Both the position numbers and the translations under genes were made by a program. From a virus, in the IMG/VR virus record IMGVR_UViG_3300042904_000107, positions 33,145 to 97,144 of that record: 64,000 nt of DNA; one strand, 5' to 3'. This document shows positions 4,589 through 58,458 of the stretch, in pieces (the stretch's first letter is position 1; each line of letters starts with the position of its first letter). The notes beneath the pieces were generated by a model. That model saw only the letters and a list, made by a program, of their open reading frames with translations, was not told the origin of the DNA and searched no databases.

Positions 4589-6103
4589 TCATACGTCTCT
4601 AGACCATGAGGCGCCGACCACTCGCTTTCCGTAATCGGTTGTCCCAACTCTTTCTCGGATGTAAGTCAGACTGTACTCGTTGGTCAACACCCCGTCCAGG
4701 AAAACAGTGACGAGGTGGTCGCCAAAATGATTGATGAACGGATCGATGAGCGACGACACAGTGTGGAACTTCTTGTCATTGCCGTTCTGAAAAACGACTT
4801 TGTGGACACCGCGCTTACTGCCCTTACCCTTATCACCGACTGGGTCTTTGTACACATCGTACCAGACGCCGTTGATTCGGATCGCGGAGCACTTGAAGGC
4901 GAACTTCAACGTGTCGCGGTCGACGCCTTGCAGCAACTTACCACCCATCCCGAAACAAGCCATGTTGTCGATTGACCAACCAGCATCAGTGATTGCCCGA
5001 CACAGAGCGCGGATGGTGTGAATGTTCATACCATCACCCTGAAGGAGCCGAACGAACTGCGGTAGCACTTTGTAGCCCTTGCGGTTCGTCTCATAGCCGA
5101 AGCGATCACCGAGGATTTCAAGCAACTTCAAGATGGTTGGGATGATTTCACCGGAGTCGGGGCGAACGACAACCGTACCATTTCGCGATGCGACTTCCGC
5201 TTTCAATTCGCGTCCGAAGATTTCGCTACAGGCATTGAAAATGTCGTAGCTGTCCGAGACAATCGAAACGATGCCCGTCGGATAGCTTTGGAGCATGTTC
5301 GCGTAGGCTTGTGCCTCTCTGTCGCGACCCCATGAGGTGATTGTCGAGTGCTCGGCTGCCGGCACACTGAAACCAGGCATCGAATCGGGACGGTAATACT
5401 TCAGAGCGAGAGACAATCCGACCATTGTGTCGGTACCTCTGAAATTTACCATATGTGCTGCGGCACCGATTGCGGCAGATTCACGAGACGTTGAGCCGCG
5501 TGAACCGAAGTCTTGAAGCATGAAGACCAGTTTGCCTTCGAGAGTTTCGGGATCTCCGCTAAGTTCGAGGTACTCGCGAATGATATCCTTGATCTCAGCG
5601 CTCAATGACGCCACGGTGATTGGATACCACAAGCGCATAAGCATAGTCTCAACATAGTTGACTAGCCAGTAGCACTTCGGATCCGTATTCACTACCGTGA
5701 CCAATGCATTGTGTGTTCCGATTCGCGTGCCTTCCGGAATCGCCTTGATGAGCAACGGAAGGTGCCCACCGTGATGGTCGACAATGTAGCGCCAGCCTTC
5801 TTCGTTGAAGTTTCGCGGATCTCCGCCCATGTGCTCCACGATCATGAGTTTTGCCACGTCGATCATTTCGTGGGTCACGACCGGTCCGGTCAGATACTTC
5901 TTGATGATGTACTGGAGTCCAAACATCACCGTCTTATCGAACTGACCGCCGCGCGATTCGAGGTAGCTGTAGACGTATTCGGTGTCCGGAGGATATTGCA
6001 TCCAGTGGCTCGTTTTGTACGAGTCGCTGTCCAGGATCACGTTGAATAGGAGATCGTCTGGAAGATTCTCTAATTGTTGAAGACTTGTTAATGGGAGCGT
6101 CAT
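4589..6103 (-). CDS. nadV: nicotinamide phosphoribosyltransferase (NAMPT)
   Basis: DSYKTSH, DFGSRG, AAEHS, SDSYD, RPDSG, QGDG, GMGG motifs. Confidence 0.95.
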   Translation of the reverse strand: MTLPLTSLQQLENLPDDLLFNVILDSDSYKTSHWMQYPPDTEYVYSYLESRGGQFDKTVMFGLQYIIKKYLTGPVVTHEMIDVAKLMIVEHMGGDPRNFNEEGWRYIVDHHGGHLPLLIKAIPEGTRIGTHNALVTVVNTDPKCYWLVNYVETMLMRLWYPITVASLSAEIKDIIREYLELSGDPETLEGKLVFMLQDFGSRGSTSRESAAIGAAAHMVNFRGTDTMVGLSLALKYYRPDSMPGFSVPAAEHSTITSWGRDREAQAYANMLQSYPTGIVSIVSDSYDIFNACSEIFGRELKAEVASRNGTVVVRPDSGEIIPTILKLLEILGDRFGYETNRKGYKVLPQFVRLLQGDGMNIHTIRALCRAITDAGWSIDNMACFGMGGKLLQGVDRDTLKFAFKCSAIRINGVWYDVYKDPVGDKGKGSKRGVHKVVFQNGNDKKFHTVSSLIDPFINHFGDHLVTVFLDGVLTNEYSLTYIRERVGTTDYGKRVVGASWSRDV

Positions 6104-13177: not shown

Positions 13178-14461
13178 TTACCACGGACGAAGTGTTTTTC
13201 CGGAAGCAGTAGCGTGGTGAGGTAGAGTAGGTTTATCCTCATTATCCGGTCCATCTTTTGCGGTCGCGTCAATCTTGGTGTACATTTCCAAGAAGGCGGA
13301 CTGTGTGTTTTCATCGAATCGGGCAATTGCCAGCTTGAGGGCTTTCAAGCGATTACGTCCGAAGATGCTGTAGCCCTTGATAATGTGGATCAAACGGCCG
13401 GTGGTGATAGTCTCATCGACACCGCCGTCCTTATGAGTCAGGCGAATGTTTTCTGCCCACTGGCAGAGCGGCTCGGCGAATTCCGAATCGGCGATCCCAA
13501 ACTGCTTGAGGTTATTGTTGAGGATTCTCACCTCGATGCGCTTTTCAGGATAACTATGTTCGAATGTTGCACCGGTCAGACGCTCTAAAAGAGCGTCATT
13601 CATGACGTTTGTTCCGATGTACTTCCCGTCTTCACTGCCGCGACCCTTGGTGTTCGCTGTGGCAGCAATGTTGAAGCCAGGTCTCGGGTATACCCACCGA
13701 TTCAGCTTCTTAATGAAGATTCCGTTTCCTTCATAGACGGGCTGAAGGCACATGATCTTGTTCGATCCTAGGTCGATTTCATCCAACATAAGAAGGCCGC
13801 CTTCGGGATCTTCCATCGCTTTGATAACCGGACCGTCTTCCCAGACAGTCTCACCGTTGATGAGACGGAAACCACCGATGAGGTCGGATTCGTCAGTCTC
13901 GATGGTGATGTTGACGCGATAGAGATTCCGCTTCAGTTCAGCGCACGCCTGGAGAATACTCTCCGTCTTACCCGACCGGGTCGGTCCCGTTGAAAGAAAC
14001 GGAAAGAACAGGCGGGACTTGATGATATCGTAAATGTCCTCGTAAGAGCCGAACGGAACGAAAGTCGGATTCGGCTTCGGGACCAGCCCGCTATCAGCCG
14101 GAACAATCGTGGGAGTAGTGTTCAGTTGTGGTTTTGCCGGCATCTGAATGACCTTAACGTCGGTATCTTCGTCATCTTCCTCGGTGAAATCGTCTGGGTC
14201 TTCCTCGGGAGCGCCAGGAATCGGCGTTGACAGATCAACGCTCATTTCGGGATAAGGTAGCTTGTACTTACCGCGACCAAAATGGAATTCAGGGTCTTTA
14301 ACCCAGGATTGACGTCCGAGTTTGTACTTCGCTCGGATCGCAAGCATCTCCTGGCGAGTGAAAAATGTTCGGTCGACTCCGTACTCCCTCTTTACCAGTT
14401 CAGTGAAGTGTTTCTGCTTGGCTTCGAGTTTGGAATTAACCTTAAGGGATGCAGTGGCCAT
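13178..14461 (-). CDS. MoxR/CobS-like AAA+ ATPase of T4-like phages
   Basis: GPTRSGKT, RVNITIETDESDLIGGFRL, LLMLDEID, ATANTKGRG; SD GGAG before ATG 14461. Confidence 0.9.
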   Translation of the reverse strand: MATASLKVNSKLEAKQKHFTELVKREYGVDRTFFTRQEMLAIRAKYKLGRQSWVKDPEFHFGRGKYKLPYPEMSVDLSTPIPGAPEEDPDDFTEEDDEDTDVKVIQMPAKPQLNTTPTIVPADSGLVPKPNPTFVPFGSYEDIYDIIKSRLFFPFLSTGPTRSGKTESILQACAELKRNLYRVNITIETDESDLIGGFRLINGETVWEDGPVIKAMEDPEGGLLMLDEIDLGSNKIMCLQPVYEGNGIFIKKLNRWVYPRPGFNIAATANTKGRGSEDGKYIGTNVMNDALLERLTGATFEHSYPEKRIEVRILNNNLKQFGIADSEFAEPLCQWAENIRLTHKDGGVDETITTGRLIHIIKGYSIFGRNRLKALKLAIARFDENTQSAFLEMYTKIDATAKDGPDNEDKPTLPHHATASGKTLRPW

Positions 14462-14499
14462 AAAACTCCTCCAGGAGCCTATGGCCCCTGAGAGTGGCG

Positions 14500-14901
14500 T
14501 TAGTCGCCACTCTCCACACTCCCAACCGTCTCGGCGGTCGGCTCCGGATCTTTCTTCGGCTTGGGAGACTTTTTCTTCGGCGTCTTCGGGACAGTCTTCG
14601 TCTTCGGTGCCTCTTCGGGTTCCTGTTCCGTCGGCCGCACCGGTGCGGCATCTTCCTGGACGAGCGGGAGCTTCGCGAGGACACTCAAATCGTACATACC
14701 GCGCGTCGTCCTGACGGACATATTGCGAGTGATCCACCGAGGCGCCGCCAATGTGCCCAGGAGTTCTCGTGCGGCCTTCTTCAGTTCCGCGCGTTTGACA
14801 TTGTTGTGCGAATCCCCGAACCGCTCGATCAACTGGGTCAGGAAACGCTTCATTTTCGGAGTGAGCGCAGTCGGCTGGTGGGCCGGGTTGCCTTTTTTCA
14901 T
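14500..14901 (-). CDS. hypothetical protein resembling the N-terminal domain of the adjacent ATPase, with K/P/E tail
   Basis: ORF behind TTGACT promoter; visual alignment. Confidence 0.6.
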   Translation of the reverse strand: MKKGNPAHQPTALTPKMKRFLTQLIERFGDSHNNVKRAELKKAARELLGTLAAPRWITRNMSVRTTRGMYDLSVLAKLPLVQEDAAPVRPTEQEPEEAPKTKTVPKTPKKKSPKPKKDPEPTAETVGSVESGD

Positions 14902-14984
14902 TTTAAAACCCCTTTCAATTACTGCTTACAGATACAAGGGTACTAAATTGTGGCCCGAAAGTCAAGCGATTTTAGGCCTTTTTA

Positions 14985-17354
14985 TTAGGAAATTAGCTTG
15001 ATGAACCTGGTCAATAACACCCGCTGTTTACGCTGCCTAAGTCCATGGTTGCTCATTGCGGTGACCAGTTGCGCGTTTGTTACAAGTCCGTTAAGGACTG
15101 AGCCTGAGCCTGCCTGAGTGATACGGAGCTTATTTCCACTAGGAAGGATATAAAATTCATCATACCCCGTTGTGGTAGAAACAACGAAATACTTGGTATC
15201 TAGTTCACTCTTCAACTTATCCTTCTGTGTTTGCAGCACAATATCCTTTGCAGGAAAGAAATTGCTGAAGGATTCCTCTGGATTTTTACCACTAATGAAG
15301 AATCCAACAACTTTCGCTTTCGTCTGTGCTCTCAGGATACGGAGAAACTGGTTAGTAGTTTCGATGTTATTCGAGGTCAACTCATAATCCTCTCGGTTTA
15401 CATCATCCCGGAGGTAGATTTTCTCCGAATCGTAACGCATCATACTTGTACCACCGAATGCGGTCGAACAGTAATGATTGTTAGTAGTCGCCTCTCCGTC
15501 GGTAAGGAACGTAACATTCACGTTCTGAATGCGTTTTCGCATTTCATTTACCAAAGGGATCGCGCATACAATTGCCTCATTCAACGGTGTGCCTCCAAGC
15601 AGGTCTGTGCTGGGCAATTGATATCTCCCTGAGGCCCCCGATGCCATTAAAAGGAGGTTCACACATGCATCGTTGAATTCCTTGACGGTCATCGCACTAG
15701 ACAGAATCTCACGCAAAGTAAATCCTGCGTAGAATGCATAGCTATCCTTCTCATGCTCAAAAGCCGTCATATTACCACTAAAACCCCGATATCTATCATC
15801 AGGTAATTGCGCTCCGAATGTAAATACTCGGAATGCAATCTGAGCCTTTCGTTGAAACATAGCTAGATTGATTAGCTGGTGGATTGTTCCAACGAGGTGC
15901 TCGCTCATCGATCCACTCCAATCGATGAACGTGATATTTCCGTGATTCTTACCACCAGGAACAATAGCGTTCCGGCGCATGATGTCGTCCGTGTAACGGA
16001 ACTCATGCAAACGCTTCAAATCCAGATCTCCGCTACGGGCATAGGTGGTGCGGGCGTACTGGTCGGCGGCCTTGTGCATTTCGAATTCTTTTAGCAGCCA
16101 ATCCACAACTGGTTTGTTTTCGTGTTTGAATGTGTCAAACTCCACTGTATGTTGAGCCACAAGTGTCGTTTTGTTTTCCTTGTCGTACTTCTCGTAAAAG
16201 TCGCGGATCTCTTGATTAACTTGCTTATAACCGACGATGATTTCTGCCAATTTCGGCTTCGGTATCCCAAGATAGCGAATCGGTAGCGCGTCTTTGTCGC
16301 GGAGTTCTTCTTGTTGCTGAGTCCAGGTCTGATCGGTAGTAGACTCTATGGGGCTGTCGTCCGGTTCATCTTGAGTTCCATCACCATCTTCTGAATTTGT
16401 TCCAGTATCAGGCGCTTCATCTTCCCCATCCGGTTCATCTTCGCTTTCTTCGTCACCGGCAGAGCCAGGCTCACCTTCAGAATCTTCAGCGTCCTCGGCT
16501 TCGTCACCGTCACCGGCGGCATCTTTCTCATCACCGGAGTCTTCAGCGTCTTCACCGTCTACTTCAGGAGTACTGTCTCCGTCATCGTCATCTGGCATAC
16601 CTTCAGGCTCAACGTCGGGATCAACTTCCTCATTCTCTTCGTCAGTATCCTCGACTTTCGACGCCACCTTACGGGCACCCTTCTTGTCGTTCTCTCCCTG
16701 CTTCTCGTCCGGATCTTTGTCACCCTCTAGGTCGTCCTGCGCTTGCTGCTCCTGTTTTTTCTTCTCGGCGCGCTCTTTCTTGGCATAGGCGTAAAGGTCA
16801 ACGCAAATATTGACCACCTCATTGAAGGTCATCACCTCATCGATTGCCTTGACGAATTTCATTTCCTCATCAGAGAATTGAACTCCGGCGTCGTGACCGA
16901 CTTTAAAATGGATATTCAATCTATCCACAATACCGAAGTCATTGATATTCTTGCCATGGGTACCGAAGAAGTTTCGTGCCACGAGTTCTTTGTATCCGCG
17001 GACGAACGAAGCCCTGGAACCCGGATAACGTTTCTTTTGCAACTTCTCAATCCTGGCGTCCTCGACAACGTTAATAAACGTCTTCGCAGCGCCAGGATGT
17101 TTAGCGTCAATTTTATTGCAGGCGTCGATGAGCGGCTTGGAGCCTTTGGGAGTGTTTAAAGCGTGCCCTGTTTCGTGGATTACGAGGAGATCGTAAATGT
17201 CGCCCGACATATCTTTCCAGATCGGCAGCGTGAGAATGCGCCGATTCGGATCGAAGGTGGCGGTACGAGTACCGGCGTGAACGACCGTAATGTTCTCTGT
17301 TGCCAGCAACTTGGCTAACTGTTTCTTCGCTTGTACGTTTACGGTTTCGGGCAT
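14985..17354 (-). CDS. HExxH + acidic linker + vWA protein (CobT-like partner of MoxR ATPase)
   Basis: HETGH, NVVEDARIEK, MIDAS DWSGSM, GGTPL, FLTDGE. Confidence 0.88.
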   Translation of the reverse strand: MPETVNVQAKKQLAKLLATENITVVHAGTRTATFDPNRRILTLPIWKDMSGDIYDLLVIHETGHALNTPKGSKPLIDACNKIDAKHPGAAKTFINVVEDARIEKLQKKRYPGSRASFVRGYKELVARNFFGTHGKNINDFGIVDRLNIHFKVGHDAGVQFSDEEMKFVKAIDEVMTFNEVVNICVDLYAYAKKERAEKKKQEQQAQDDLEGDKDPDEKQGENDKKGARKVASKVEDTDEENEEVDPDVEPEGMPDDDDGDSTPEVDGEDAEDSGDEKDAAGDGDEAEDAEDSEGEPGSAGDEESEDEPDGEDEAPDTGTNSEDGDGTQDEPDDSPIESTTDQTWTQQQEELRDKDALPIRYLGIPKPKLAEIIVGYKQVNQEIRDFYEKYDKENKTTLVAQHTVEFDTFKHENKPVVDWLLKEFEMHKAADQYARTTYARSGDLDLKRLHEFRYTDDIMRRNAIVPGGKNHGNITFIDWSGSMSEHLVGTIHQLINLAMFQRKAQIAFRVFTFGAQLPDDRYRGFSGNMTAFEHEKDSYAFYAGFTLREILSSAMTVKEFNDACVNLLLMASGASGRYQLPSTDLLGGTPLNEAIVCAIPLVNEMRKRIQNVNVTFLTDGEATTNNHYCSTAFGGTSMMRYDSEKIYLRDDVNREDYELTSNNIETTNQFLRILRAQTKAKVVGFFISGKNPEESFSNFFPAKDIVLQTQKDKLKSELDTKYFVVSTTTGYDEFYILPSGNKLRITQAGSGSVLNGLVTNAQLVTAMSNHGLRQRKQRVLLTRFIKLIS

Positions 17355-17417: not shown

Positions 17418-18434
17418 TCAGATCGCTCCGTGTGGGAGACTCTCTTGATATCCGTTGGTTGTTATCTGGACAAATTCAGAATTCTCTCGCAGTTCTCGGA
17501 GATTCATAGCTCCACAATAGGAGAATCCAGATTTGACACCTTCTACCAACTGTCGGATGATTGGTTCGGCATGTCCCTTATATCGGACAAGGGTTTCTTC
17601 TCCCTCAACATAGCGGGCATGTCCAACTGCGTCGTATTTCTGACCGTATGAGGCAGATCCTCTGTAGATCTTGTATAGGTTGCCATTGGACTTGATTACG
17701 TTACCTGGAGCTTCAGCCGTTCCTGCAAGAATACTTCCGAGCATTACAGCATCGGCACCTGCGGCCAGAGCCTTCACTATATCACCAGAATTCTTGATAC
17801 CACCATCGGCAATTAAAGTAACATCAGGAATAACTTTACGGATTTGGAAAATACTTTCAAGGGTAGGTAGGCCGCAACCTGTAACAATTCTCGTGGTGCA
17901 TTGACTGCCGCTACCAACACCCACTTTGAATGCTAGATTGTCGTCTCCACCACCTAAAATGTGTAGTAGTCTCCAAATACCTTCAGCCGTAGCATAGTTC
18001 CCAATAATTAGAGGAACAAGACCGAATGTTTTACGAATCTCAACCACAGTATCAATGACCGTTGGTGAATCGGCATGCGCCACATCAATACAGTAACCAG
18101 CTATACAGAACTTAATCTCCTGCAATTCTCGAATACGGTCAATGCCTAATTTTGAGCCTTCAATCGATACCCAGACGGACTCAAATGGGTGTTTGGAGAT
18201 AATCTCTTTCTGCTCCTCAACATCCATCATACGGTGAAGGATACCAAACCCTCCCACCGCACGCATGGACTCCAACATCCTGCTTTCTGTCACTGTTGAC
18301 ATATTGGCAGAAATGAATGGAAGCTTATATTCTTTACCTGAAATTGTGGTAGAGAGATCCACTTCGTCTCTGCTACCACCATAGGTCTGCTGCGGAATCA
18401 AAAGAACATCATCGAATGATAATGCCAAATTCAT
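17418..18434 (-). CDS. GMP reductase / IMP dehydrogenase family protein (no CBS domains)
   Basis: SFDDVLL.P, SANM, DVAH, GVGSGSQCTTR, ADGGI..SGDIVKALAAGADAVMLG, YRGSAS. Confidence 0.9.
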   Translation of the reverse strand: MNLALSFDDVLLIPQQTYGGSRDEVDLSTTISGKEYKLPFISANMSTVTESRMLESMRAVGGFGILHRMMDVEEQKEIISKHPFESVWVSIEGSKLGIDRIRELQEIKFCIAGYCIDVAHADSPTVIDTVVEIRKTFGLVPLIIGNYATAEGIWRLLHILGGGDDNLAFKVGVGSGSQCTTRIVTGCGLPTLESIFQIRKVIPDVTLIADGGIKNSGDIVKALAAGADAVMLGSILAGTAEAPGNVIKSNGNLYKIYRGSASYGQKYDAVGHARYVEGEETLVRYKGHAEPIIRQLVEGVKSGFSYCGAMNLRELRENSEFVQITTNGYQESLPHGAI

Positions 18435-18603
18435 TAATAAATTGCCTTTTCTAGATCTTGGAGTGCCTGTTCTACGGCTTCAGTATGTTCCTTTGGCAAC
18501 TCGTCGTCTTCATCGAGCCCCATGGTTTCTTCACCGGTGTATTGTAATGTGTTCAGGCAATCACCAATACTGTAGATCAAATCGTAAAGTTGGTTGCGTG
18601 TCA

Positions 18604-18990
18604 TTAGTTTATGGAAACATCTCCTTCAATTTCCAAGTAACCATTGGTCTCAGTATTTACAATCTCAACCACAGGTACAACAGAACTATCGTAGCCATAC
18701 CCTGTTGTTAGTGTGGTGAATTCAATTTCCAAGTTTAGCTCTTTTGCAATCTCTCTGGATCTGCGGAGCCATTCATCATACCGCTCTTGAGTACTCATCA
18801 AAATTACCTCAAATTGTCTACTTTGTTGGAAGCAACTATAATGCATGACAAATCCCACCCACTCATCCCATGAGTTTTTGTGGTATTTCATGACCAACTC
18901 TTCGTCTTCCTCTGTAATGTCACGCTCACACCAGGAGCAATAATCATCACAGAGGTGCTTGACGATGAGTTGTGTTACGTGGACGCTCAT
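18604..18990 (-). CDS. hypothetical protein (CSWC..HYSC)
   Basis: ORF coupled to MTase stop. Confidence 0.5.
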   Translation of the reverse strand: MSVHVTQLIVKHLCDDYCSWCERDITEEDEELVMKYHKNSWDEWVGFVMHYSCFQQSRQFEVILMSTQERYDEWLRRSREIAKELNLEIEFTTLTTGYGYDSSVVPVVEIVNTETNGYLEIEGDVSIN

Positions 18991-20696
18991 TTCTTTTTGG
19001 TCTTCTTTGTTGCTGGCTTCTTAAAGACGAAGATAAGTTCAGTCTTGTGCCACTTCCCGTTCACTTTGCAGAAGTTCTTACAAGTTGGTTTACCATCTTC
19101 ACCAACGCGATTAGCACCAGGCATATTTGCTAGAACCATCTTTTCAACACCAACATACTCAGCACCTAGAGACTCTAGAATAGCCCTGCTATCCTGTTCT
19201 AGTGGGTAGTACTGGTCACCGACCTTAATGTCTGCAATGTTCCACAGTAGATAGCGGTCAGGTTTCAGATTATTATACGCATTTTCCAGAGTTGGTCTAA
19301 GGAATCCATCACGCCACTGGTCATAGAAAGGAAACTTCTTAAGGGACTGGGTATCATCTTCGGAATATCCCTCACGATTAAAATACGGAGGACTAGTGAA
19401 TACGAGGTCCAGTTTGTTTTTGTATTGCTGGAAATCAGGGTGCTCACCAATGACCTCGGAACCTTGAGTGAAAACGTGATAGGTATGAGGATCATAGCCA
19501 AACCGCTTAAGTGACTTATTAACAAAGTCAGCCAGATACTCATAGCGAGTACGGCCCAATTCCTCAATAAAATTATCTGTATTTGGATCCGTCCCGATGT
19601 AATGGACATGCCTGTCATCCATGACTGTCATTGCACCGGCAATTCGTCCACCCCATCCGGATGACGGGTCATAAATGTTGATTACGTCTTGGCTCTTGCA
19701 ATGATCCGTGTATTTTTCGTACAGGTACTTAGCAATCATTGGTGGGAAGTTCACCGCTACTTGAATGTAACCGATCTTGAACGCGGTGAAGCCAATCGGG
19801 AAAATACGAGTGTCTTTCTTGAAAAGACGAATATGGTACTGTTCACTGTCGTTTAGGTCTTTGTTCAGAGCACCTTGCCACTCAACGTCAGTTCTTTCAG
19901 GATCAACACCAACCAGATTGGCAGTGTTTTCGGGAGTGATGATTCCTTGCTTTGCGAGATCGAGTATCTCCGCTTTGCTGAGCCACATGAACTTCGATGC
20001 GTCAACCGAAGTATATCCCGTTCCTACTTCACCATCTTCAGGTGGTTCAACGCGACTGAGCCAGAAACCGTAATCCTTAAAGATCGTGGTGCGGTACGTA
20101 TTGAATGCGTCTACCCACTGTCTACCAGTCTCGGCGCTTTCAACCACCGCTAGTTTACTGCGTTCGGGTAATGACCAAGAGTAACGATAGAACGAATCGC
20201 GTTTAAAGTGGCGTCTACAACCTTTGACCATTCGGTTGCGGAACCGTTCGTTAGCAAATAGATCATAAACAGCATATCCATTAAATGTCCCCTCGTCGTC
20301 TACTTTCGTCTGGTAATTTATCTTCGCCTTCATCATGGTCGGGAAGAATTGATTAACACATGCTCCCAGATAACCATTATTGATGATAACGTTCGCCTTG
20401 CCATCCATCTCATCGACGTACGGTTTGGTACCGCCAGATTTTGCTTTGTAGAGTGAGATTGTCTTTCCTGGAGTACCACTCATTTCACGGAACTCCTCAT
20501 TCATCTCGCGTTCATCCATACCAGCGAGGGGAGGAATCCCGTGTATGTCCCAAACTTCTAATACACGGGATCGCATATGGTCGACCCACTTCTCAAACTC
20601 CGCATCGGTCATTACCAATAATTCGGAAAATTTTGCGTTTACGGAAGGGTCATCAATGATTTGGTCGTTGCGCGACCAGTAGAATTTTTCTGACAT
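18987..20696 (-). CDS. DNA amino-methyltransferase (N4-C/N6-A type) with long N-terminal region
   Basis: YDPSSGWGGR (SAM motif I), YIGTDPN, FTSPPYF..E.Y (motif IV). Confidence 0.85.
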   Translation of the reverse strand: MSEKFYWSRNDQIIDDPSVNAKFSELLVMTDAEFEKWVDHMRSRVLEVWDIHGIPPLAGMDEREMNEEFREMSGTPGKTISLYKAKSGGTKPYVDEMDGKANVIINNGYLGACVNQFFPTMMKAKINYQTKVDDEGTFNGYAVYDLFANERFRNRMVKGCRRHFKRDSFYRYSWSLPERSKLAVVESAETGRQWVDAFNTYRTTIFKDYGFWLSRVEPPEDGEVGTGYTSVDASKFMWLSKAEILDLAKQGIITPENTANLVGVDPERTDVEWQGALNKDLNDSEQYHIRLFKKDTRIFPIGFTAFKIGYIQVAVNFPPMIAKYLYEKYTDHCKSQDVINIYDPSSGWGGRIAGAMTVMDDRHVHYIGTDPNTDNFIEELGRTRYEYLADFVNKSLKRFGYDPHTYHVFTQGSEVIGEHPDFQQYKNKLDLVFTSPPYFNREGYSEDDTQSLKKFPFYDQWRDGFLRPTLENAYNNLKPDRYLLWNIADIKVGDQYYPLEQDSRAILESLGAEYVGVEKMVLANMPGANRVGEDGKPTCKNFCKVNGKWHKTELIFVFKKPATKKTKKK

Positions 20697-20700
20697 GCTG

Positions 20701-21240
20701 CTAATATGTAGGAAATTTTAATTGCTTGTCTTCGAAGAGAATTTCTTCTAGGATCTTTCTAGTATCTCTGAAGTTGGTAAACAAGATCGAATAGCCACCA
20801 GCTTCATTCCACTGAAGGCAATTCTGAGCATTATCATCAATGAGAATGTTACTTTGTCCATTGGTGACCGCCCAATGCTTCTTGTGCGACTTGCGCGTAA
20901 CCACGGTAACTTCGTCTTTATCGATATAAAGATTCCGTTCACACCATTCGTACTTCTGTGGTAAACTCTCAACGACCTTGTCGCTCATCGCCGTGAGGAC
21001 TTCCACCTTCTGACCCTTCATCATATGGTCATAGCGAAGATAGTTCCATAACCACTGACCATCCTGAAGCCAAGGTAACGTCGCATAGAACCTAGGCGTC
21101 CTTTTGGTCAAATCCATTTTCTGCTTTTGTGTGAGTTCCTTATACCCACCTTGGAAATCCCAATGTTTTTTGGCTAGGCGATATACTTCACCTTCCCAGT
21201 CAACTAGGACACCATCCATATCAACGTAAATTATACTCAT
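20701..21240 (-). CDS. HAD 5'(3')-deoxyribonucleotidase-like protein
   Basis: IYVDMDGVLVD, LTA, K..W, ILIDDN. Confidence 0.85.
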   Translation of the reverse strand: MSIIYVDMDGVLVDWEGEVYRLAKKHWDFQGGYKELTQKQKMDLTKRTPRFYATLPWLQDGQWLWNYLRYDHMMKGQKVEVLTAMSDKVVESLPQKYEWCERNLYIDKDEVTVVTRKSHKKHWAVTNGQSNILIDDNAQNCLQWNEAGGYSILFTNFRDTRKILEEILFEDKQLKFPTY

Positions 21241-21249
21241 CCAGTGGGC

Positions 21250-21435
21250 TTAAGAGCCCACGTTCCAGAAAAGGAATTTCTTTTTGGGAGTTTCCGGCCG
21301 AATTAATCTAGGAAGCGTCAATGCATCTACTTCCCATCCTTCCCATTTGACAACGACAAACGGAAGATCAATCGAAATAATTGATCCTCTTGCATAGTCT
21401 GTCATCACACGTTGGCCAATTTTAAGCTCCAACAT
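21250..21435 (-). CDS. small SH3-like hypothetical protein
   Basis: ORF coupled to the PLP gene; duplicated C-terminus. Confidence 0.55.
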   Translation of the reverse strand: MLELKIGQRVMTDYARGSIISIDLPFVVVKWEGWEVDALTLPRLIRPETPKKKFLFWNVGS

Positions 21436-22225
21436 TCCAAAATAGGACTTTCTTTTTGGGTTTTGCTCCGATTAGGACGTGTTCCCAGGCTTTTGCGTCG
21501 TAATTGGGAGACGAAGGGAAAGGCGGGCGCTTATCTTTCTTGCATTCTTCCGCAAACTTCTGCGAATGGCGAATAATTGTGGCTCTACCTTGCTCTGCGG
21601 GTGAGAGAACGTGCCCTATACTTACAGCATAACACTTTGCGTCAGGAAAAGCAAGTTGCAAACCACGGTTAAGGACACCCGATCCCGCAACTGACCAAAT
21701 TTCGTCAGGTTCGAAATCTAGAGTCCGCGCAACCTTTACAACAGATCCAATAACTGCCGGATCTCCGCTGAACTCCACGAGTCTTCTGTGTTGAGGGTCT
21801 TCGGCGACATATTTTCTGGCTCTTCCTTGCGTTACAGTCAACATTCCCATATTGACTTCGTGTATGTCAACACCTAATTGTTTAGCCTTCTCAGAGCTAG
21901 GATGCAGTTCCTTACCCTTGGCAATGAAGACTGTGGCCTTCTTACCATACTTCTTACAGACGGCACCAAGGCCTATCTGACCGTAGCCCCATCGAGAACC
22001 ACCGCCATAAACCCACTCCTGTACGGGTTCTTTCTGCACCATGTAATCGTAGATGCGCTCTTTGGTTCCTCCAGTTAGGAGGTCATCGCGCACAACATAG
22101 ATGCCTTCGTGCTTCTCCACAACAGGTGGTGGGTTTGGGTCGGTCCAGTCTTTTACCTTACTCAGATACCACTCAGGAGATCCTGGCTCGCCTTCGTCTA
22201 CTTCAAAGAAATCTTTCCAACTCAT
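21422..22225 (-). CDS. PLP-dependent enzyme, fold type II (TrpB/ACC-deaminase-like)
   Basis: VRDDLLTGGTKER (Schiff-base Lys), SVAGSG phosphate loop, YDAKAW, LFWNVG. Confidence 0.8.
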   Translation of the reverse strand: MSWKDFFEVDEGEPGSPEWYLSKVKDWTDPNPPPVVEKHEGIYVVRDDLLTGGTKERIYDYMVQKEPVQEWVYGGGSRWGYGQIGLGAVCKKYGKKATVFIAKGKELHPSSEKAKQLGVDIHEVNMGMLTVTQGRARKYVAEDPQHRRLVEFSGDPAVIGSVVKVARTLDFEPDEIWSVAGSGVLNRGLQLAFPDAKCYAVSIGHVLSPAEQGRATIIRHSQKFAEECKKDKRPPFPSSPNYDAKAWEHVLIGAKPKKKVLFWNVGA

Positions 22226-22485
22226 CGGATATCCCTTACAATCTGAGCAATCGTTTCTTCAGGAGCTTCCAAATCACCTTCTTCTAGGAAGAAAGTGTAG
22301 AAGCGTCCTTCATGATTGATCTGGAGCGCTAATTGCTCAGACCATCCTTCATCGTCACTACCATATCGGCAGAACGTAATCGCATGATGGCATTTGGGCG
22401 CTGGAGGCATTTCCTCTTCTAACCGCTTCAGGAAATTGAGGAGTTGTTCTCTCATTTCATGAACCTCTCTACCGTGTCGGCACAA
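22222..22485 (-). CDS. hypothetical protein
   Basis: ORF inside the coupled cluster; start uncertain. Confidence 0.5.
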   Translation of the reverse strand: MCRHGREVHEMREQLLNFLKRLEEEMPPAPKCHHAITFCRYGSDDEGWSEQLALQINHEGRFYTFFLEEGDLEAPEETIAQIVRDIR

Positions 22486-22928
22486 TCATAGACGAAGATC
22501 GTCCCTGGGATTGTTCCGTTTGACCAAACAATCTTACCTGCATCCTGAAACCCAACTGCTTTATGCCACTTGATGGACTGCTCGTTGCTGTCATGTACGC
22601 AACCGAACACGCGACCAGGTTTCACATATTCCTCAACAAACTGTCGGAAGAACAGGAACGGTCCAAGCGTATTCTTCTTATTGGTGCTTAGAATCTGGTG
22701 AATATTCCACTCACCGCGCGAGTACTGATACTCACCGACACGACCACCGCGCTTCATCTGTTGAATTACCGCAATGGTATCGTTGCCCATGAATACTTGT
22801 CCCGCTTCGATACTGCGTACCAAGTAATCTTTACGGACATACAAGAACTTTCCTTCTTTCTTGTACAACTTAAAGCCGTCCTGAATCGCTTTCAGGTCGT
22901 CCTGCGTTGCTACGTGTAACTTAGACAA
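22452..22928 (-). CDS. GNAT-fold acyltransferase-like protein
   Basis: C-terminal V...N..S..WH...GF matches GNAT motif B; IHQI strand. Confidence 0.65.
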   Translation of the reverse strand: MSKLHVATQDDLKAIQDGFKLYKKEGKFLYVRKDYLVRSIEAGQVFMGNDTIAVIQQMKRGGRVGEYQYSRGEWNIHQILSTNKKNTLGPFLFFRQFVEEYVKPGRVFGCVHDSNEQSIKWHKAVGFQDAGKIVWSNGTIPGTIFVYDCADTVERFMK

Positions 22929-23943
22929 ATTTCACCTCGTGATATAGTTTAGGACATAGCTTCTCAAATTCTACATCATCAAGGAAACTATCGGGCGTCA
23001 ATCCTGTCAAGAACGTAACAAACGATCCGTTCTTTTCCGTTTTCTGGTAATTGAAATGGAGTGTCCGTGTAAACTTGAAAAGTTCCTGTAAAATTGCGTA
23101 TTCAACCCGGCGGCTAAAGGCTCTGCAACTCAAGCAGAAATGGTGCAAAGACATGTAGTTGTGGAGAGTGGTATTGAACATGTGTTCTCCAGTAATTACC
23201 GCAATGACACCCAAAGGACCGAAGCGATCCTCGTAACTAACCACATAACCAAAGTTATGACCGATCGAAAGCAGATATTCCAGTCGGTTCTTCTCTGTAA
23301 TCCATCCATTCAGATTGAACTGGTTGGTTTTCTTGATTAGTTCCACTGCTCTATCAATGTTGTTTTCATTGATAGCTGAGAAGGTAAGCTTGGCATTCAA
23401 GCTCTGGTAGAATTCCTCAGGATCTTTTGTGCTCAACTCGGAATTGAACCGCACATTCGAGCGAATGCTTTGCATCCGAAGCTTGTCTTCCTGGGTCGCT
23501 TCGCGCTTCGGGAAGAAATAGCGGACGGACTTCACAAAATTCGGGAAATCTTCCTCATTTTTAGGGAATTTGAGAACTTTGATACCTGGATGCGAATCGA
23601 AGACTTCTGCCAATTCAAAATCGGAGTCATCGATAAACAGCACGTCATCCGCAGAAATATTCCATGTTTTCAGAATGCGTGCCACAGATTCCGACTTTGG
23701 ACCCCAATTTGCCTCGACTGGAAAGAAATGATCTAGTCCTATCTTAGGTTTTAGGATTTCAAACGGAACCTTAACGTCTTCATTCTTACTGGCAATAGCA
23801 AGAAGAATTCCTTCAGTTTCCAATTTTAGTAGGAGTGTCTGATACTGTGCGTACATTCCTTGAACTGTTAAGTCCTCTTCCTCGGATTCTAACCAGATTC
23901 CACCCCAAAGTGTTTTGTCTAAATCGGTAATAATACCTTTCAT
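22921..23943 (-). CDS. FkbH-like HAD-IIIC glyceryl-ACP loading enzyme
   Basis: TDLDKTLWGG, GILLAIASKN, NWGPKSES, FIDDSDFE, KTNQFNL, DRFG.LG.I, LSCRAFSRRVE. Confidence 0.9.
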   Translation of the reverse strand: MKGIITDLDKTLWGGIWLESEEEDLTVQGMYAQYQTLLLKLETEGILLAIASKNEDVKVPFEILKPKIGLDHFFPVEANWGPKSESVARILKTWNISADDVLFIDDSDFELAEVFDSHPGIKVLKFPKNEEDFPNFVKSVRYFFPKREATQEDKLRMQSIRSNVRFNSELSTKDPEEFYQSLNAKLTFSAINENNIDRAVELIKKTNQFNLNGWITEKNRLEYLLSIGHNFGYVVSYEDRFGPLGVIAVITGEHMFNTTLHNYMSLHHFCLSCRAFSRRVEYAILQELFKFTRTLHFNYQKTEKNGSFVTFLTGLTPDSFLDDVEFEKLCPKLYHEVKFV

Positions 23944-24173
23944 GCTGCCTCCACTGCTTCAAGGAAGGCATCGAAGGATGTTAGCTCGGCGATCTTCTCT
24001 AGATTGAGTACATTACCGAATTCATTCTCAATGGCTACTACCAATTCAACAACGCGCACAGAATCCCAGTCTCCAAGCGTGTCTTCACTCGCAGAAAGTA
24101 CCGTTTTGTCTGTCAGATTGGGGAATACCTGTTTGAAGCAGGTAATAAGACGTGATTTTGTCGATTTCTTCAT
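23940..24173 (-). CDS. acyl carrier protein
   Basis: 77 aa; GDWDSV (phosphopantetheine Ser), LVVAIENEFG; coupled to FkbH. Confidence 0.88.
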   Translation of the reverse strand: MKKSTKSRLITCFKQVFPNLTDKTVLSASEDTLGDWDSVRVVELVVAIENEFGNVLNLEKIAELTSFDAFLEAVEAA

Positions 24174-24185
24174 ATTCCAAACATA

Positions 24186-24254
24186 TTCCCGCGCTTAAGT
24201 TATTATTTTAGCACAACTTAGCGCGGGAAAGCAACTGTCAATACTACTTAGGCC
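24186..24254 (-). promoter_or_regulatory. promoter of the ACP cluster overlapped by an inverted repeat
   Basis: TTGCTT-18-TAAAAT; arms TTCCCGCGCTTAAGTT / AACTTAGCGCGGGAA. Confidence 0.55.
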
Positions 24255-24407: not shown

Positions 24408-24665
24408 TTAGAAAATTCCTCGTCCTTTCAACGCGATTGAAGCATTTGCAATGTGCAAAGCGCTCCGAACTCTAAGAATAGCCTCGTTCCTGTCAGCACT
24501 TGGTGGGCAGGTAACCAAAATTACTTGCGCGAAGTACTTGGCAGCTTCACGAAGCGACTGGTAATTCGCAATTTCTTCAGGTGTTGGAGCATGGTATCTA
24601 AAAACATGATCTAGATCCATCTCTTGTTGTACGGTCAGGTCGTTAATCATAACTAACGGATTCAA
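24408..24665 (-). CDS. Acb2/Tad1-like helical-hairpin protein (candidate signal sponge)
   Basis: FRYHAPTPEE..Y..LRE.AK.FA..I...CP.SADR..AI......ANASIA pattern. Confidence 0.6.
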   Translation of the reverse strand: MNPLVMINDLTVQQEMDLDHVFRYHAPTPEEIANYQSLREAAKYFAQVILVTCPPSADRNEAILRVRSALHIANASIALKGRGIF

Positions 24666-56951: not shown

Positions 56952-57264
56952 CCTTCATTTCCTTTTCCCCTTTGGGTCGGCCGGTTCGGGGCCGACCCTT
57001 CTTTTTTGTCAGCCCTCGACTTGGCAGAATTCAGTGGATACCAGCGAAAATTTTTTTGGATAGAAAATCCTAGAAACAATTTTTATGGCCGTTCTGGTGG
57101 CTGGGTCTACGGTGCCCGCGAAAATTTTTTTATTTCAAAAATCTTGCGTCCGCATACAAACTTCTTGCCTCTTGAAGTTTCAGATTGTAGCTAGACACTC
57201 TCTGGAGAGCGTATTTCAGATAAAAAGATCTTAAATCACTTTGAGATACAAAGTAGTAAGTCAC

Positions 57265-57310
57265 AAAAAAGCGCGACTAACAGCGTTACGTATTCGCTAT
57301 CAGTCGCGCT
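57265..57310 (-). terminator. intrinsic terminator of the GG/CC-free unit
   Basis: AGCGCGACTGATAGCG..CGCTGTTAGTCGCGCT followed by a T run. Confidence 0.8.
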
Positions 57311-57319
57311 AACTCTCAC

Positions 57320-57550
57320 TTACATGCTGTCGTCTGTCTCAACTGCAAGAGCGTATGTGTGAAACTGCTCGTGATTCGCGTCGAATGTCAAACGCGCGAC
57401 ATCAAATTCTGTTACTTCGACTTTCTCTGTTGCTTCTGTGTTCTCGAAGAAGACAAACTGTGTAGCGAAGTAAGCTAACACAGTGTCATCTAAGCGAGTG
57501 TCAGTGTCTTCAATCGAGTTGAGTTGTTCTTTCAGTTGTCTATACGTCAT
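57320..57550 (-). CDS. acidic 76-aa protein with no Gly/Pro/Trp
   Basis: leader CGAAAGAGAGAACA-ATG identical to the upstream gene. Confidence 0.75.
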   Translation of the reverse strand: MTYRQLKEQLNSIEDTDTRLDDTVLAYFATQFVFFENTEATEKVEVTEFDVARLTFDANHEQFHTYALAVETDDSM

Positions 57551-57605
57551 TGTTCTCTCTTTCGTTGTTGTGCGCGCTAGTCACGTTCTAGCGCGCTCGT
57601 GTCTG

Positions 57606-58193
57606 CTAACTAAGTAACTGAAGCGCTTGCTCGTTCTGTGCTTCAGTCAATTGCTGTTCGTCGCGTTTCGCGTTCTGAGCGTCGATAGCGCGATCTGTTG
57701 CGCTCTGCTTCGCTTCGCGCTTCGCTTTCGTTTCGCGCTTCGCTTTCGTCGCTTCGTTCGTCGCTTTCGTCACAAGCGCTTTGCTGTCGCTTTGCTTCGC
57801 GTCGCTCGTTGCGCTTGCAAGCTTGCAACGCTTCAGATCGTACAGATGTGATGCTGTCTGAAGCGCTTTGTTCTTCGTCACGTAGTACACAGCGCAGCGT
57901 CGCTCACTATCGACGCTCACAGATGCGTGATAGATCTCAGAGCGCTTATACATGCGCTTTGCATAGCGCTGTTTCGCGTCGTCGCTCACGTTGAGTGCTT
58001 CGTCTTCTTTGATGTCGCGCACAGCGCAATAGCGCTTGAGAGCGTCTTTATCGACGTTGCGCGCAACGAGCGCATCGAAAAACGCGATGATGAGTTGAAT
58101 CATCGCGAATTGCTTCGCGTTGAACTTCGTAAGCGTGATGAGCACGCTATACGCTTCGTTCGTTTCTTTGTTAATCGCTTTTTGAATCGACAT
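57606..58193 (-). CDS. 195-aa protein with no Gly/Pro/Trp and Ala/Lys-rich helical C-terminus
   Basis: leader CGAAAGAGAGAACA-ATG; long ORF. Confidence 0.75.
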   Translation of the reverse strand: MSIQKAINKETNEAYSVLITLTKFNAKQFAMIQLIIAFFDALVARNVDKDALKRYCAVRDIKEDEALNVSDDAKQRYAKRMYKRSEIYHASVSVDSERRCAVYYVTKNKALQTASHLYDLKRCKLASATSDAKQSDSKALVTKATNEATKAKRETKAKREAKQSATDRAIDAQNAKRDEQQLTEAQNEQALQLLS

Positions 58194-58429
58194 TGTTCTC
58201 TCTTTCGTCTCGCAAGTTAGTTTGTGTTGTGCGTCTAGCGTGCTATGAAATCAGCATGTACTAGCGCGTTTAGTGCGTTTCAGTTGTCAAAGAGCAAGTT
58301 ACTAACACTACATTCAGTTGTTGCACTCGCGAAACATACGTGAGCTTGTCTAGCAAGCTTTAGACTCGAATCTAACAGACATGAGCACGAGCGCTGTTAG
58401 CGTTTCGCTTACTTCGTTCTGACATAATC

Positions 58430-58458
58430 AGAATAGCAGAAGCGAAAATGGGGAGCAA
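58430..58458 (-). promoter_or_regulatory. sigma70-type promoter of the GG/CC-free unit
   Basis: TTGCTC-17 bp-TATTCT with TG extended -10. Confidence 0.65.

Follow-up and report, generated by a model that had tools for sequence, protein, structure and literature searches.

A possible composite nucleic-acid modification locus in an uncultured T4-like phage, with an acyl carrier protein–FkbH pair beside a GNAT–methyltransferase-fold module

Introduction

Phage DNA hypermodifications block both restriction and CRISPR nucleases, and have been a source of DNA-chemistry enzymes. To our knowledge, the characterised hypermodification pathways all begin from 5-hydroxymethylpyrimidines or 7-deazaguanines. 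In phage Mu, the GNAT-fold enzyme Mom, which is thought to act on a base amine in DNA, gives rise to N6-carbamoylmethyl-adenine. For RNA, precedents exist for moving the amino-acid end of SAM onto a base (Tyw2, Tsr3, and TapT) and for acylation of a base-linked amine by a GNAT (the cytidine N4-acetyltransferases TmcA/NAT10). Among the systems closest to the locus presented here is the thymidine hypermodification of phages M6, ViI, and PaMx11, in which M6 gp52 and ViI gp226 decarboxylate amino-acid:nucleobase conjugates in DNA while PaMx11 gp48, a GNAT, acetylates an unmasked primary amine on DNA (PMC8989533, where the NAT10 precedent is also cited). In polyketide and tetronate pathways, formation of glyceryl-ACP by FkbH and a stand-alone acyl carrier protein (ACP) is established chemistry (PMC7489565).

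Here we describe a gene run in a 64,000-nt window (the whole stretch of DNA analysed) of an uncultured T4-like phage contig from IMG/VR. This contig measures 97 kb and is 53% complete, which sets the scope of the contig-wide negative results below. A sequence-only reading had proposed the run as a candidate for carrier-protein-based DNA hypermodification. The entire run is not one co-conserved pathway. The ACP, FkbH, NT5C, and GMPR genes were missing from all 160 related viral loci. Instead, the locus is made of three layers: a core pair, a frequent accessory, and a rare add-on.

Results

The named genes are tightly packed on the minus strand, with junctions that either overlap by 1–34 nt or leave gaps of 4–9 nt; from the ACP through the PLP gene, the junctions overlap. 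Neighbouring genes encode gp46/gp47-like nuclease subunits, an HNH endonuclease, a gp45-like clamp, a helicase, and a late sigma factor. Every gene called previously (ACP, FkbH, GNAT, PLP fold-II enzyme, NT5C, methyltransferase-like protein, and GMPR) was recovered, all on the minus strand:

24174..24247 (-), intergenic leader upstream of the ACP gene, 74 nt, with a TTGACA hexamer and a 13-bp hairpin (CCCGCGCTAAGTT / AACTTAAGCGCGGG)
23940..24173 (-), stand-alone acyl carrier protein, 77 aa, predicted phosphopantetheine site Ser38 in DWDSV
22921..23943 (-), short-form FkbH, 340 aa, HAD-IIIC phosphatase domain and C-terminal Cys domain
22452..22928 (-), GNAT-fold acyltransferase, 158 aa, TTG start, GAGGTGA ribosome-binding site
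22222..22455 (-), small ORF, 77 aa from an ATG overlapping the GNAT stop or 87 aa from an upstream TTG
21422..22225 (-), fold-type II PLP enzyme, 267 aa, phrog_7093, homologue of M6 gp52 / ViI gp226
21250..21435 (-), 61-aa ORF, last 11 codons duplicating the 3' end of the PLP gene
20701..21240 (-), NT5C-type 5'(3')-deoxyribonucleotidase, PF06941 at 25.5 bits (cut-off 24.8), phrog_2643
18987..20696 (-), SAM-dependent methyltransferase-fold protein, 569 aa, motif I DPSSGWGGR, motif IV TSPPY, N-terminal extension of ~240 aa
17418..18990 (-), orf128, orf56, and GMP reductase, co-oriented neighbours
17418..18434 (-), GMPR (the GMP reductase), PF00478 at 282 bits

On reading its sequence, a consensus -10 hexamer at proper spacing was not found in the leader, and no minus-strand terminator was found before the end of GMPR, save one weak site; transcription of the unit may begin at this leader. 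Elsewhere in the window, a 1,246-nt stretch contains neither GG nor CC; under the full chemistry proposed below, it might be a region kept clear of the target motif.

The core of the module, as judged from gene order and domain fusions, is the pair formed by the GNAT and the methyltransferase-like protein, for which no published description was found. Most of 152 viral contigs keep the two genes side by side, and proteins fusing both, in either domain order, occur in at least four protein clusters (P0344, P0292, P0356, and P0307), with methyltransferase parts that share 27–55% identity with the window protein. Of 55 viral loci that are not truncated, 33 have the methyltransferase-like gene immediately downstream of the GNAT, and 10 have a methyltransferase core immediately upstream. 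The window methyltransferase-like protein scores 25.6 bits against PF01555, below the gathering score of 26.7 and with the match confined to the motif IV half of the profile; its DPSSGWGGR and TSPPY motifs are nearly invariant to invariant across 19 sequences. Judging by the SPPY motif, the acceptor amine may be N4 of cytosine or N6 of adenine. The structural model matches class I methyltransferases, i.e., it displays a class I SAM fold, and its nearest solved folds are the tRNA m2G enzymes Trm11 and TrmN, so that RNA has to be kept as a candidate target.

The AlphaFold model of the GNAT (pLDDT 84) matches many GNAT structures in Foldseek (E ~1e-6 to 1e-5, TM 0.6–0.75), with the protein N-terminal acetyltransferases RimI and Ard1 among the best. 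The window protein has no Pfam match; its remote relatives match Acetyltransf_1/10 and FR47 weakly. The canonical CoA-pyrophosphate motif Q/R-x-x-G-x-G/A is absent, loop 83–90 reading NKKNTLGP, and the family occurs in no cultured phage of the collection searched.

The third enzyme, the PLP enzyme, is a frequent accessory of this pair, to judge from its gene neighbourhoods. It reaches 22.5 bits against PF00291, under the cut-off, and matches phrog_7093, the family that also holds M6 gp52, with an E-value of 3e-34. In hhalign, it aligns with M6 gp52 over the full length (98.5% probability, E 3.5e-15), placing Lys55, invariant in 19 sequences, on Lys36 of gp52. Relatives are encoded by 566 IMG/VR contigs, and in 29 of 35 loci free of truncation, the PLP gene has a methyltransferase-like gene downstream of it. 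In Microcystis phage Mae-JY30, the PLP gene adjoins a methyltransferase, and in gp1 of Erythrobacter phage R6L, a PLP domain is fused between methyltransferase domains, in a protein that also carries a ParB-like DNA-binding domain and a second DNA methylase. The earlier suggestion of a PLP-generated amine as acceptor is reasonable because the enzyme is homologous to proven DNA-side-chain decarboxylases. Fusions and conserved adjacency over hundreds of viral contigs argue for the GNAT, PLP enzyme, and methyltransferase-like protein working as one functional system, as had been proposed.

One rival explanation would be that the methyltransferase-like protein is an ordinary N4-cytosine or N6-adenine DNA methylase, with the GNAT, PLP enzyme, and ACP–FkbH pair in separate metabolic roles and no common product. 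Its SAM and amino-methyltransferase motifs are intact and a PLP partner is lacking for many family members: the 80 GNAT-seeded loci include no PLP enzyme, hence the methyltransferase-like enzyme may simply methylate. However, GNAT–methyltransferase fusions in both orders, the existence of a PLP–methyltransferase fusion, and overlapping gene junctions kept across hundreds of contigs all speak against unconnected roles, and we regard this explanation as quite improbable.

The three-enzyme system could also modify RNA (e.g., tRNA or rRNA) or a protein belonging to the translation machinery rather than DNA. Several observations lean this way: Trm11 and TrmN are the best structural matches of the methyltransferase model, RimI and Ard1 are among those of the GNAT, the cupin fused to GNAT relatives in other phages (see below) is of the Asp/Asn hydroxylase type, and a peptide deformylase is encoded nearby in 50 loci. 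(D/N/S)PPY motifs, moreover, are not confined to DNA enzymes, being found in glutamine and RNA amino-methyltransferases as well. Conversely, the sequence families matched are DNA methylase models (PF01555, phrog_498, and phrog_67), the only characterised relatives of the PLP enzyme act on DNA, and R6L gp1 joins PLP and methyltransferase-like domains to the ParB-like domain and second DNA methylase. Bacterial homologues, for their part, are found on mobile elements, next to DNA methylases, integrases, and DUF3102 proteins. On this evidence, an RNA or protein target appears unlikely.

In other phages, the module often includes a hydroxylase. An ORF of 365–399 aa is present in 65 of 80 PLP-bearing loci, in most of which it ends at the PLP gene start; its C-terminal half belongs to PF05118 (cupin, Asp/Asn hydroxylase type), and its N-terminal domain is homologous to the GNAT family (hhalign 94%, E 1.4e-7). 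The cupin hydroxylase is fused or adjacent to a GNAT in these phages. No hydroxylase was found in the 97-kb contig (53% complete), and it is in this hydroxylase-less contig that ACP–FkbH lies directly upstream of the GNAT.

The ACP and FkbH form a genuine glyceryl-ACP-type pair, as initially read. FkbH scores 205.9 bits against TIGR01686 (cut-off 146.65), covering profile positions 4–315 of 323, with the HAD nucleophile motif DxDxT present as DLDKT at its N-terminus (residues 7–11) and Cys273, within LSCRAFSRR, invariant in nine sequences. The ACP scores 18.4 bits against PF00550, under the gathering score of 20.8, and far under the cut-offs of the NCBIfam ACP models; its weak PDB sequence matches are all acyl carrier proteins (35/35), W36 and S38 are invariant in 19 sequences, and homologues (30–48% identity) adjoin FkbH in 74 of 80 metagenome loci. 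By analogy with characterised enzymes, FkbH is predicted to charge the ACP with a glyceryl unit taken from 1,3-bisphosphoglycerate. As noted previously, no phosphopantetheinyl transferase (PPTase) is apparent, PF01648 having no match in the 97-kb contig (53% complete), and a host PPTase would possibly have to activate the ACP.

Since ACP–FkbH occurs in none of the 160 related viral loci, the link from ACP to GNAT rests on one lineage. The bacterial glycan clusters that hold the closest ACP–FkbH pairs also contain GT4 glycosyltransferases, hexapeptide acyltransferases, and epimerases. As part of our overall best explanation, for which we would put the chance at somewhat below even, the pair would be a lineage-specific add-on captured from such clusters.

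The sequence-only reading had also made the ACP a partner of the GNAT, and a modelled complex favours this docking. The ACP–GNAT model scored 0.67 (best of three controls, 0.00); of 80 solved complexes, 58 came up to that mark, as did 2 of 110 mismatched pairs, counts that are only rough for this model because our own alignments were used. Contacts agreed between runs to at least 92%, with partner pLDDT of at least 89. ACP residues 37–46, including Ser38, contact GNAT residues 87–95 and 117–126, which we take to be the beta4–alpha3 loop and alpha4, i.e., the region that holds the CoA pyrophosphate in GNATs. The model thus supports docking of Ser38 on the GNAT cofactor site, and the pass could also reflect likeness to solved carrier-protein complexes.

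Alternatively, ACP–FkbH, with or without the GNAT, may be an independent cassette that glyceroylates a host surface glycan, lipid, polyamine, or protein, and a chance neighbour of the methyltransferase/PLP module. The bacterial polysaccharide clusters holding the closest pairs would fit such a role, as would other viral FkbH loci, where WcbI-like and capsule-like genes occur but PLP and methyltransferase genes do not, and the unrelated auxiliary genes held by the same slot in other phages. However, the GNAT beside FkbH belongs to the family fused or adjacent to the methyltransferase-like protein and is not a glycan-cluster acyltransferase, its start is overlapped by the FkbH stop (by 8 nt), its predicted docking with the ACP is favoured, and the window ORFs scanned showed no glycosyltransferase or sugar-nucleotide gene. 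We consider an independent cassette to be a minority possibility.

The remaining genes are interchangeable neighbours in a variable genome slot, which other phages fill with peptide deformylase, dCMP deaminase, or PfkB kinase genes, and not pathway members. The NT5C position is occupied by dCMP deaminase in 28 other loci, and orf128, orf56, and GMPR were not found in related loci. The small ORF at 22222..22455, placed only tentatively among these neighbours, showed no family match, no likeness to the hydroxylase fusion, and nothing informative in Atlas. The 61-aa ORF, without homologues in related loci, is probably a recombination scar: its 3' end and that of the PLP gene share a ~35-nt near-identical stretch.

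Discussion

Our preferred explanation, held tentatively and at a little less than even chances, is a composite nucleic-acid modification locus, acting most likely on DNA bases, whose three layers build a glyceroyl-capped, SAM-derived side chain. The methyltransferase-like enzyme would flip out a base and transfer the 3-amino-3-carboxypropyl end of SAM, instead of its methyl group, to an exocyclic amine. The PLP enzyme would then decarboxylate the aminocarboxypropyl group on the DNA, leaving an aminopropyl chain whose free amine the GNAT would cap. In most phages, an acyl-CoA would serve the GNAT as donor, with the product hydroxylated by the fused or adjacent cupin enzyme. In the phage under study, where the hydroxylase is absent, the GNAT would take an already hydroxylated glyceroyl group from the ACP, activated by a host PPTase and charged as glyceryl-S-ACP by FkbH from 1,3-bisphosphoglycerate. 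NT5C, GMPR, and the small ORFs would stand outside the pathway. The complete chemical outcome, i.e., virion DNA bearing a glyceroyl-capped aminoalkyl group on a cytosine or adenine exocyclic amine through aminocarboxypropyl transfer, PLP decarboxylation, and acylation from glyceryl-S-ACP, is a long shot in this exact form.

The initial interpretation is thus partly supported: the GNAT/PLP/methyltransferase system and the ACP–FkbH pair find support, whereas a single co-conserved pathway and any link to Mom beyond the fold do not. The methyltransferase-like/GNAT/PLP set is widespread in phages and probably decorates DNA bases. Since this module is centred on a methyltransferase-fold enzyme and comes without machinery for 5-hydroxymethylpyrimidines or 7-deazaguanines, it points to a different entry route into hypermodification, and one that would be common among the uncultured T4-like phages of aquatic and soil habitats. 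If the proposed chemistry is right, it would represent the first DNA modification to depend on a carrier protein, and also the first case of aminocarboxypropyl transfer to DNA. The ACP–FkbH variant would further mean that phages can plug bacterial glycan or polyketide carrier-protein chemistry into DNA tailoring, widening the range of side chains to be expected.

Among known systems, Tyw2, Tsr3, TapT, and TmcA/NAT10 act on RNA and serve here as precedents, the aminocarboxypropyl step itself being purely inferred. With Mom, the window GNAT shares only the fold, no sequence relation being found, and Mom has no methyltransferase-like, PLP, or ACP partner. The FkbH of FK520 biosynthesis and Mad7/Mad8 (PMC7489565) resemble the window pair in the HAD motif, the conserved Cys, and the small dedicated ACP. 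Unlike these polyketide and tetronate modules, the window includes no PKS, FabH-like enzyme, or glyceryl-ACP dehydrogenases, its FkbH is a short form without the N-terminal domain, the nearest relatives of the pair lie in bacterial glycan rather than polyketide clusters, and the downstream partner is a GNAT from a phage family putatively devoted to nucleic-acid modification.

With the thymidine hypermodification of M6, ViI, and PaMx11 (PMC8989533), the window shares a PLP enzyme homologous to M6 gp52 over the full length, a GNAT (compare PaMx11 gp48), and, as proposed here, post-replicative tailoring in which a DNA-borne side chain derives from an amino acid; gene sets are combinatorial across metagenomes in both cases. 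A dUMP/dCMP hydroxymethylase, 5-hmdU DNA kinase, and aGPT-Pplase were not found in the 97-kb contig (53% complete), which was searched with PF00303 and with M6 gp51 and gp54 as single-sequence queries, yielding no matches. Unlike in these phages, the side chain would be put onto an exocyclic amine by a SAM-dependent protein with a methyltransferase fold, and the proposed acyl donor would be a carrier protein rather than CoA.

Gene content and genomic setting

The window (bases 33145–97144) belongs to a 97-kb linear IMG/VR virus record with an estimated completeness of 53%. Its T4-type genes code for the major head protein, portal, sheath, terminase, gp46/gp47-like nuclease, late sigma factor, helicase, and clamp. 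Its nearest cultured capsid relatives, i.e., Methylophilales and Pelagibacter myoviruses, cyanophages, and Sinorhizobium and Stenotrophomonas phages, are only ~60% identical, and megablast returned no nucleotide match of the region among cultured phages. Scans with single proteins also came up empty, as did the A2 scans for close relatives in viral and metagenome contigs. In this region, the following gene calls, all taken from the sequence-only reading, held on re-examination:

23940–24173, minus strand: ACP
22921–23943, minus strand: FkbH, predicted glyceryl loader of the ACP
22452–22928, minus strand: GNAT
21422–22225, minus strand: PLP enzyme
20701–21240, minus strand: NT5C
18987–20696, minus strand: methyltransferase-like protein, SAM-dependent, 569 aa
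17418–18434, minus strand: GMPR

Gene junctions are overlapping or a few bases apart, and the ACP gene is preceded by a 74-nt leader with a hairpin; no T4 late-promoter motif was found in the module region. The identity of FkbH is unambiguous (TIGR01686, 205.9 bits; cut-off 146.65), and the protein carries the HAD motif DLDKT and a Cys within LSCRAFSRR. In the PDB, it matched only the HAD part of 3slr. The 77-aa ACP scores under the Pfam ACP threshold, and its weak PDB matches are all ACPs (35/35). The 158-aa GNAT, which starts at a TTG codon behind a GAGGTGA site, has no Pfam match and a confident GNAT fold (pLDDT 84; Foldseek E ~1e-6). The methyltransferase-like protein retains SAM motif I (DPSSGWGGR) and the amino-methyltransferase motif TSPPY, and is modeled with a class I methyltransferase fold. 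Atlas searches with its N-terminus and with orf87, a small ORF between the GNAT and PLP genes, yielded nothing informative. NT5C and GMPR are ordinary members of their families.

Several features lie in or around the module. Immediately upstream of the ACP unit, an 85-aa ORF (24408–24665, minus strand) scores above the cut-off for the Acb2/Tad1 hairpin domain (PF24729, 37.3 bits), and is likely an anti-CBASS/Thoeris nucleotide sponge. The window also encodes a nicotinamide phosphoribosyltransferase (4589–6103) and a CobS-like AAA ATPase with a CobT-like 789-aa partner (13178–17354), the latter pair keeping synteny with the modification module across most related contigs. A 61-aa ORF and the PLP gene have near-identical 3′ ends (21250–21300 and 21422–21470, respectively) over ~35 nt encoding PKKK(F/V)LFWNVG, a repeat that looks like a recombination scar left by cassette insertion. 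Farther away, 1246 nt at 57205–58450 (47.5% G+C) are devoid of any GG or CC dinucleotide, the next-longest such stretches in the window being 126 nt, directly adjoining, and 65 nt; this is a possible sign that a modification or restriction motif is avoided.

Conservation of the module across related loci

An exhaustive profile search placed the GNAT in a family of 140 representative clusters, absent from cultured phages in the collection examined. Four of these protein clusters (P0344, P0292, P0356, and P0307) are fused to the same methyltransferase family, in both domain orders, with methyltransferase parts 27–55% identical to the window protein; further clusters are fused to a cupin hydroxylase or to a DruA-like domain. 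No similarity of orf87 to the GNAT–hydroxylase fusion was detected. A GNAT-seeded scan yielded 152 viral contigs. Of the loci, 55 were untruncated; in 33 of these the methyltransferase-like gene lies directly downstream of the GNAT, and in 10 a methyltransferase core lies directly upstream. PLP, FkbH, and ACP genes were found in 0 of 80 GNAT-seeded loci.

Relatives of the PLP enzyme are encoded by 566 IMG/VR contigs. In the best 80 of these loci, the gene order is gp46, a variable stretch, PLP, a 0–3.4 kb interval, methyltransferase-like, CobT-like, and CobS-like; the variable stretches encode peptide deformylase, dCMP deaminase, 2OG oxygenases, or PfkB kinase, and ACP, FkbH, NT5C, and GMPR occur in none of the 80. 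A 365–399-aa ORF is present in 65 of them, in most cases with its end meeting the PLP gene start. Its C-terminal half is an Asp/Asn-hydroxylase-type cupin, and its first 150 residues share homology with the family of the window GNAT (hhalign 94%, E 1.4e-7). The window GNAT stands without this accompanying hydroxylase, and no cupin hydroxylase was found elsewhere in the contig.

Judged by these conservation patterns, the core of the module is the GNAT and the methyltransferase-like protein, with the PLP enzyme and the hydroxylase as frequent accessories, ACP–FkbH as a rare add-on, and NT5C, GMPR, and, presumably, the small ORFs as bystanders. Specifically, NT5C and GMPR were rejected as pathway steps because neither shows co-conservation with another part.

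Full-length homologues of the methyltransferase-like protein also occur in bacterial contigs from Devosia (L259:4923–7491), Limnohabitans (L261:4952–7539), and an alphaproteobacterial MAG (L256:4967–7623). In all three, an overlapping ~345-aa ORF (DUF3102 in Devosia) precedes the homologue and an integrase or another DNA methylase lies nearby, with GNAT and PLP genes absent.

Probable origin of ACP–FkbH and its possible link to the GNAT

In 74 of 80 metagenome loci, an ACP homologue (30–48% identity) adjoins the FkbH homologue; Trp36 and Ser38 of the ACP are invariant. These closest homologues of FkbH (37–44% identity), mostly bacterial proteins of 579 aa, are followed by an ACP of the same family, and their neighbors include GT4 glycosyltransferases, hexapeptide acyltransferases, a glyoxalase-fold protein, polysaccharide deacetylase, asparagine synthase, and sugar epimerases. 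The ACP–FkbH cassette was probably acquired from a glycan cluster, in which it would supply an N-acyltransferase. One 2.2-kb metagenome contig (L141) has the gene order of the phage (gp46 end, ACP, FkbH), and other viral FkbH loci include capsule-type genes and lack PLP and methyltransferase genes. Another viral contig (L004:33–3837) has, beside tail genes, a carrier-protein cassette of a different kind, encoding FkbH, a WDS-type ACP, a MaoC-dehydratase/SDR fusion, and a WcbI-like protein. No PPTase gene was found in the 97-kb, 53% complete contig.

The FkbH stop overlaps the GNAT start, and modeling of a GNAT–ACP complex supports binding of the ACP by the GNAT, with a score of 0.67 compared to 0.00 for the best control. 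Of 80 solved complexes, 58 attained a score of 0.67, as did 2 of 110 mismatched pairs; these counts apply only approximately here since custom alignments were used, and likeness to solved carrier-protein complexes could add to the model score. At least 92% of contacts were common to the runs, with partner pLDDT of at least 89. These contacts join ACP residues 37–46, including Ser38, to GNAT residues 87–95 and 117–126, which we take from the fold to be the CoA-pyrophosphate-binding site of GNATs.

Proposed pathway and comparison with known systems

The PLP enzyme keeps an invariant lysine and belongs, with Pseudomonas phage M6 gp52, to phrog_7093. Profile comparison aligned the two over their full length (98.5% probability; Lys55 with gp52 Lys36), and both share a C-terminal FWN(V/I)G end; the PLP family had no match in a PDB profile search. 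As purified enzymes, both gp52 and ViI gp226 act within DNA to decarboxylate amino-acid:nucleobase conjugates (PMC8989533). Because such homologues need a base-tethered free alpha-amino acid, and the SAM enzyme is the only conserved candidate to provide it, we propose the methyltransferase-like enzyme as an aminocarboxypropyl installer. It would move the aminocarboxypropyl moiety of SAM onto an exocyclic amine, after which CO2 would be removed by the PLP enzyme and the amine capped by the GNAT. The acyl group would be glyceroyl from the ACP in the window phage, and elsewhere would come from acyl-CoA and then be hydroxylated by the cupin. In PLP-less loci, the undecarboxylated group may be acylated, or the enzyme there may simply methylate.

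The nearest solved folds of the methyltransferase model are Trm11 and TrmN, and the target may be RNA or protein. The DNA-methylase sequence families and a ParB fusion favor DNA, as do bacterial homologues that neighbor DNA methylases, integrases, and DUF3102 proteins in mobile elements, and we consider RNA or protein less likely than DNA as the target.

Our literature search found no published description of the module, of FkbH in a phage, or of aminocarboxypropyl DNA modification. Distinctive of the window are its stand-alone GNAT, which replaces the hydroxylase fusion, the probable descent of ACP–FkbH from a bacterial glycan cluster, and the docking of ACP on the GNAT in the model. No thymidylate-synthase-like gene, 5-hmdU kinase, or aGPT-Pplase was found in the 53% complete contig, and the known thymidine hypermodification route is therefore apparently not the entry point. 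A characterized GNAT, PaMx11 gp48, acetylates the unmasked amine (PMC8989533). Cultured phages provide further links between the PLP domain and methyltransferases: in Microcystis phage Mae-JY30, the PLP gene follows a methylase gene, and Erythrobacter phage vB_EliS_R6L gp1 (L008; record 65666..2423; ~810 aa) combines ParB-like, N6/N4 methylase, gp52-type PLP, and second methyltransferase-like (phrog_12517) domains. Its PLP domain lies between the ParB–methylase part and a domain of the same phrog as the window methyltransferase-like protein, and its C-terminus shows no similarity to the GNAT profile. Coming from a cultured phage, R6L gp1 provides a testable model for the module.
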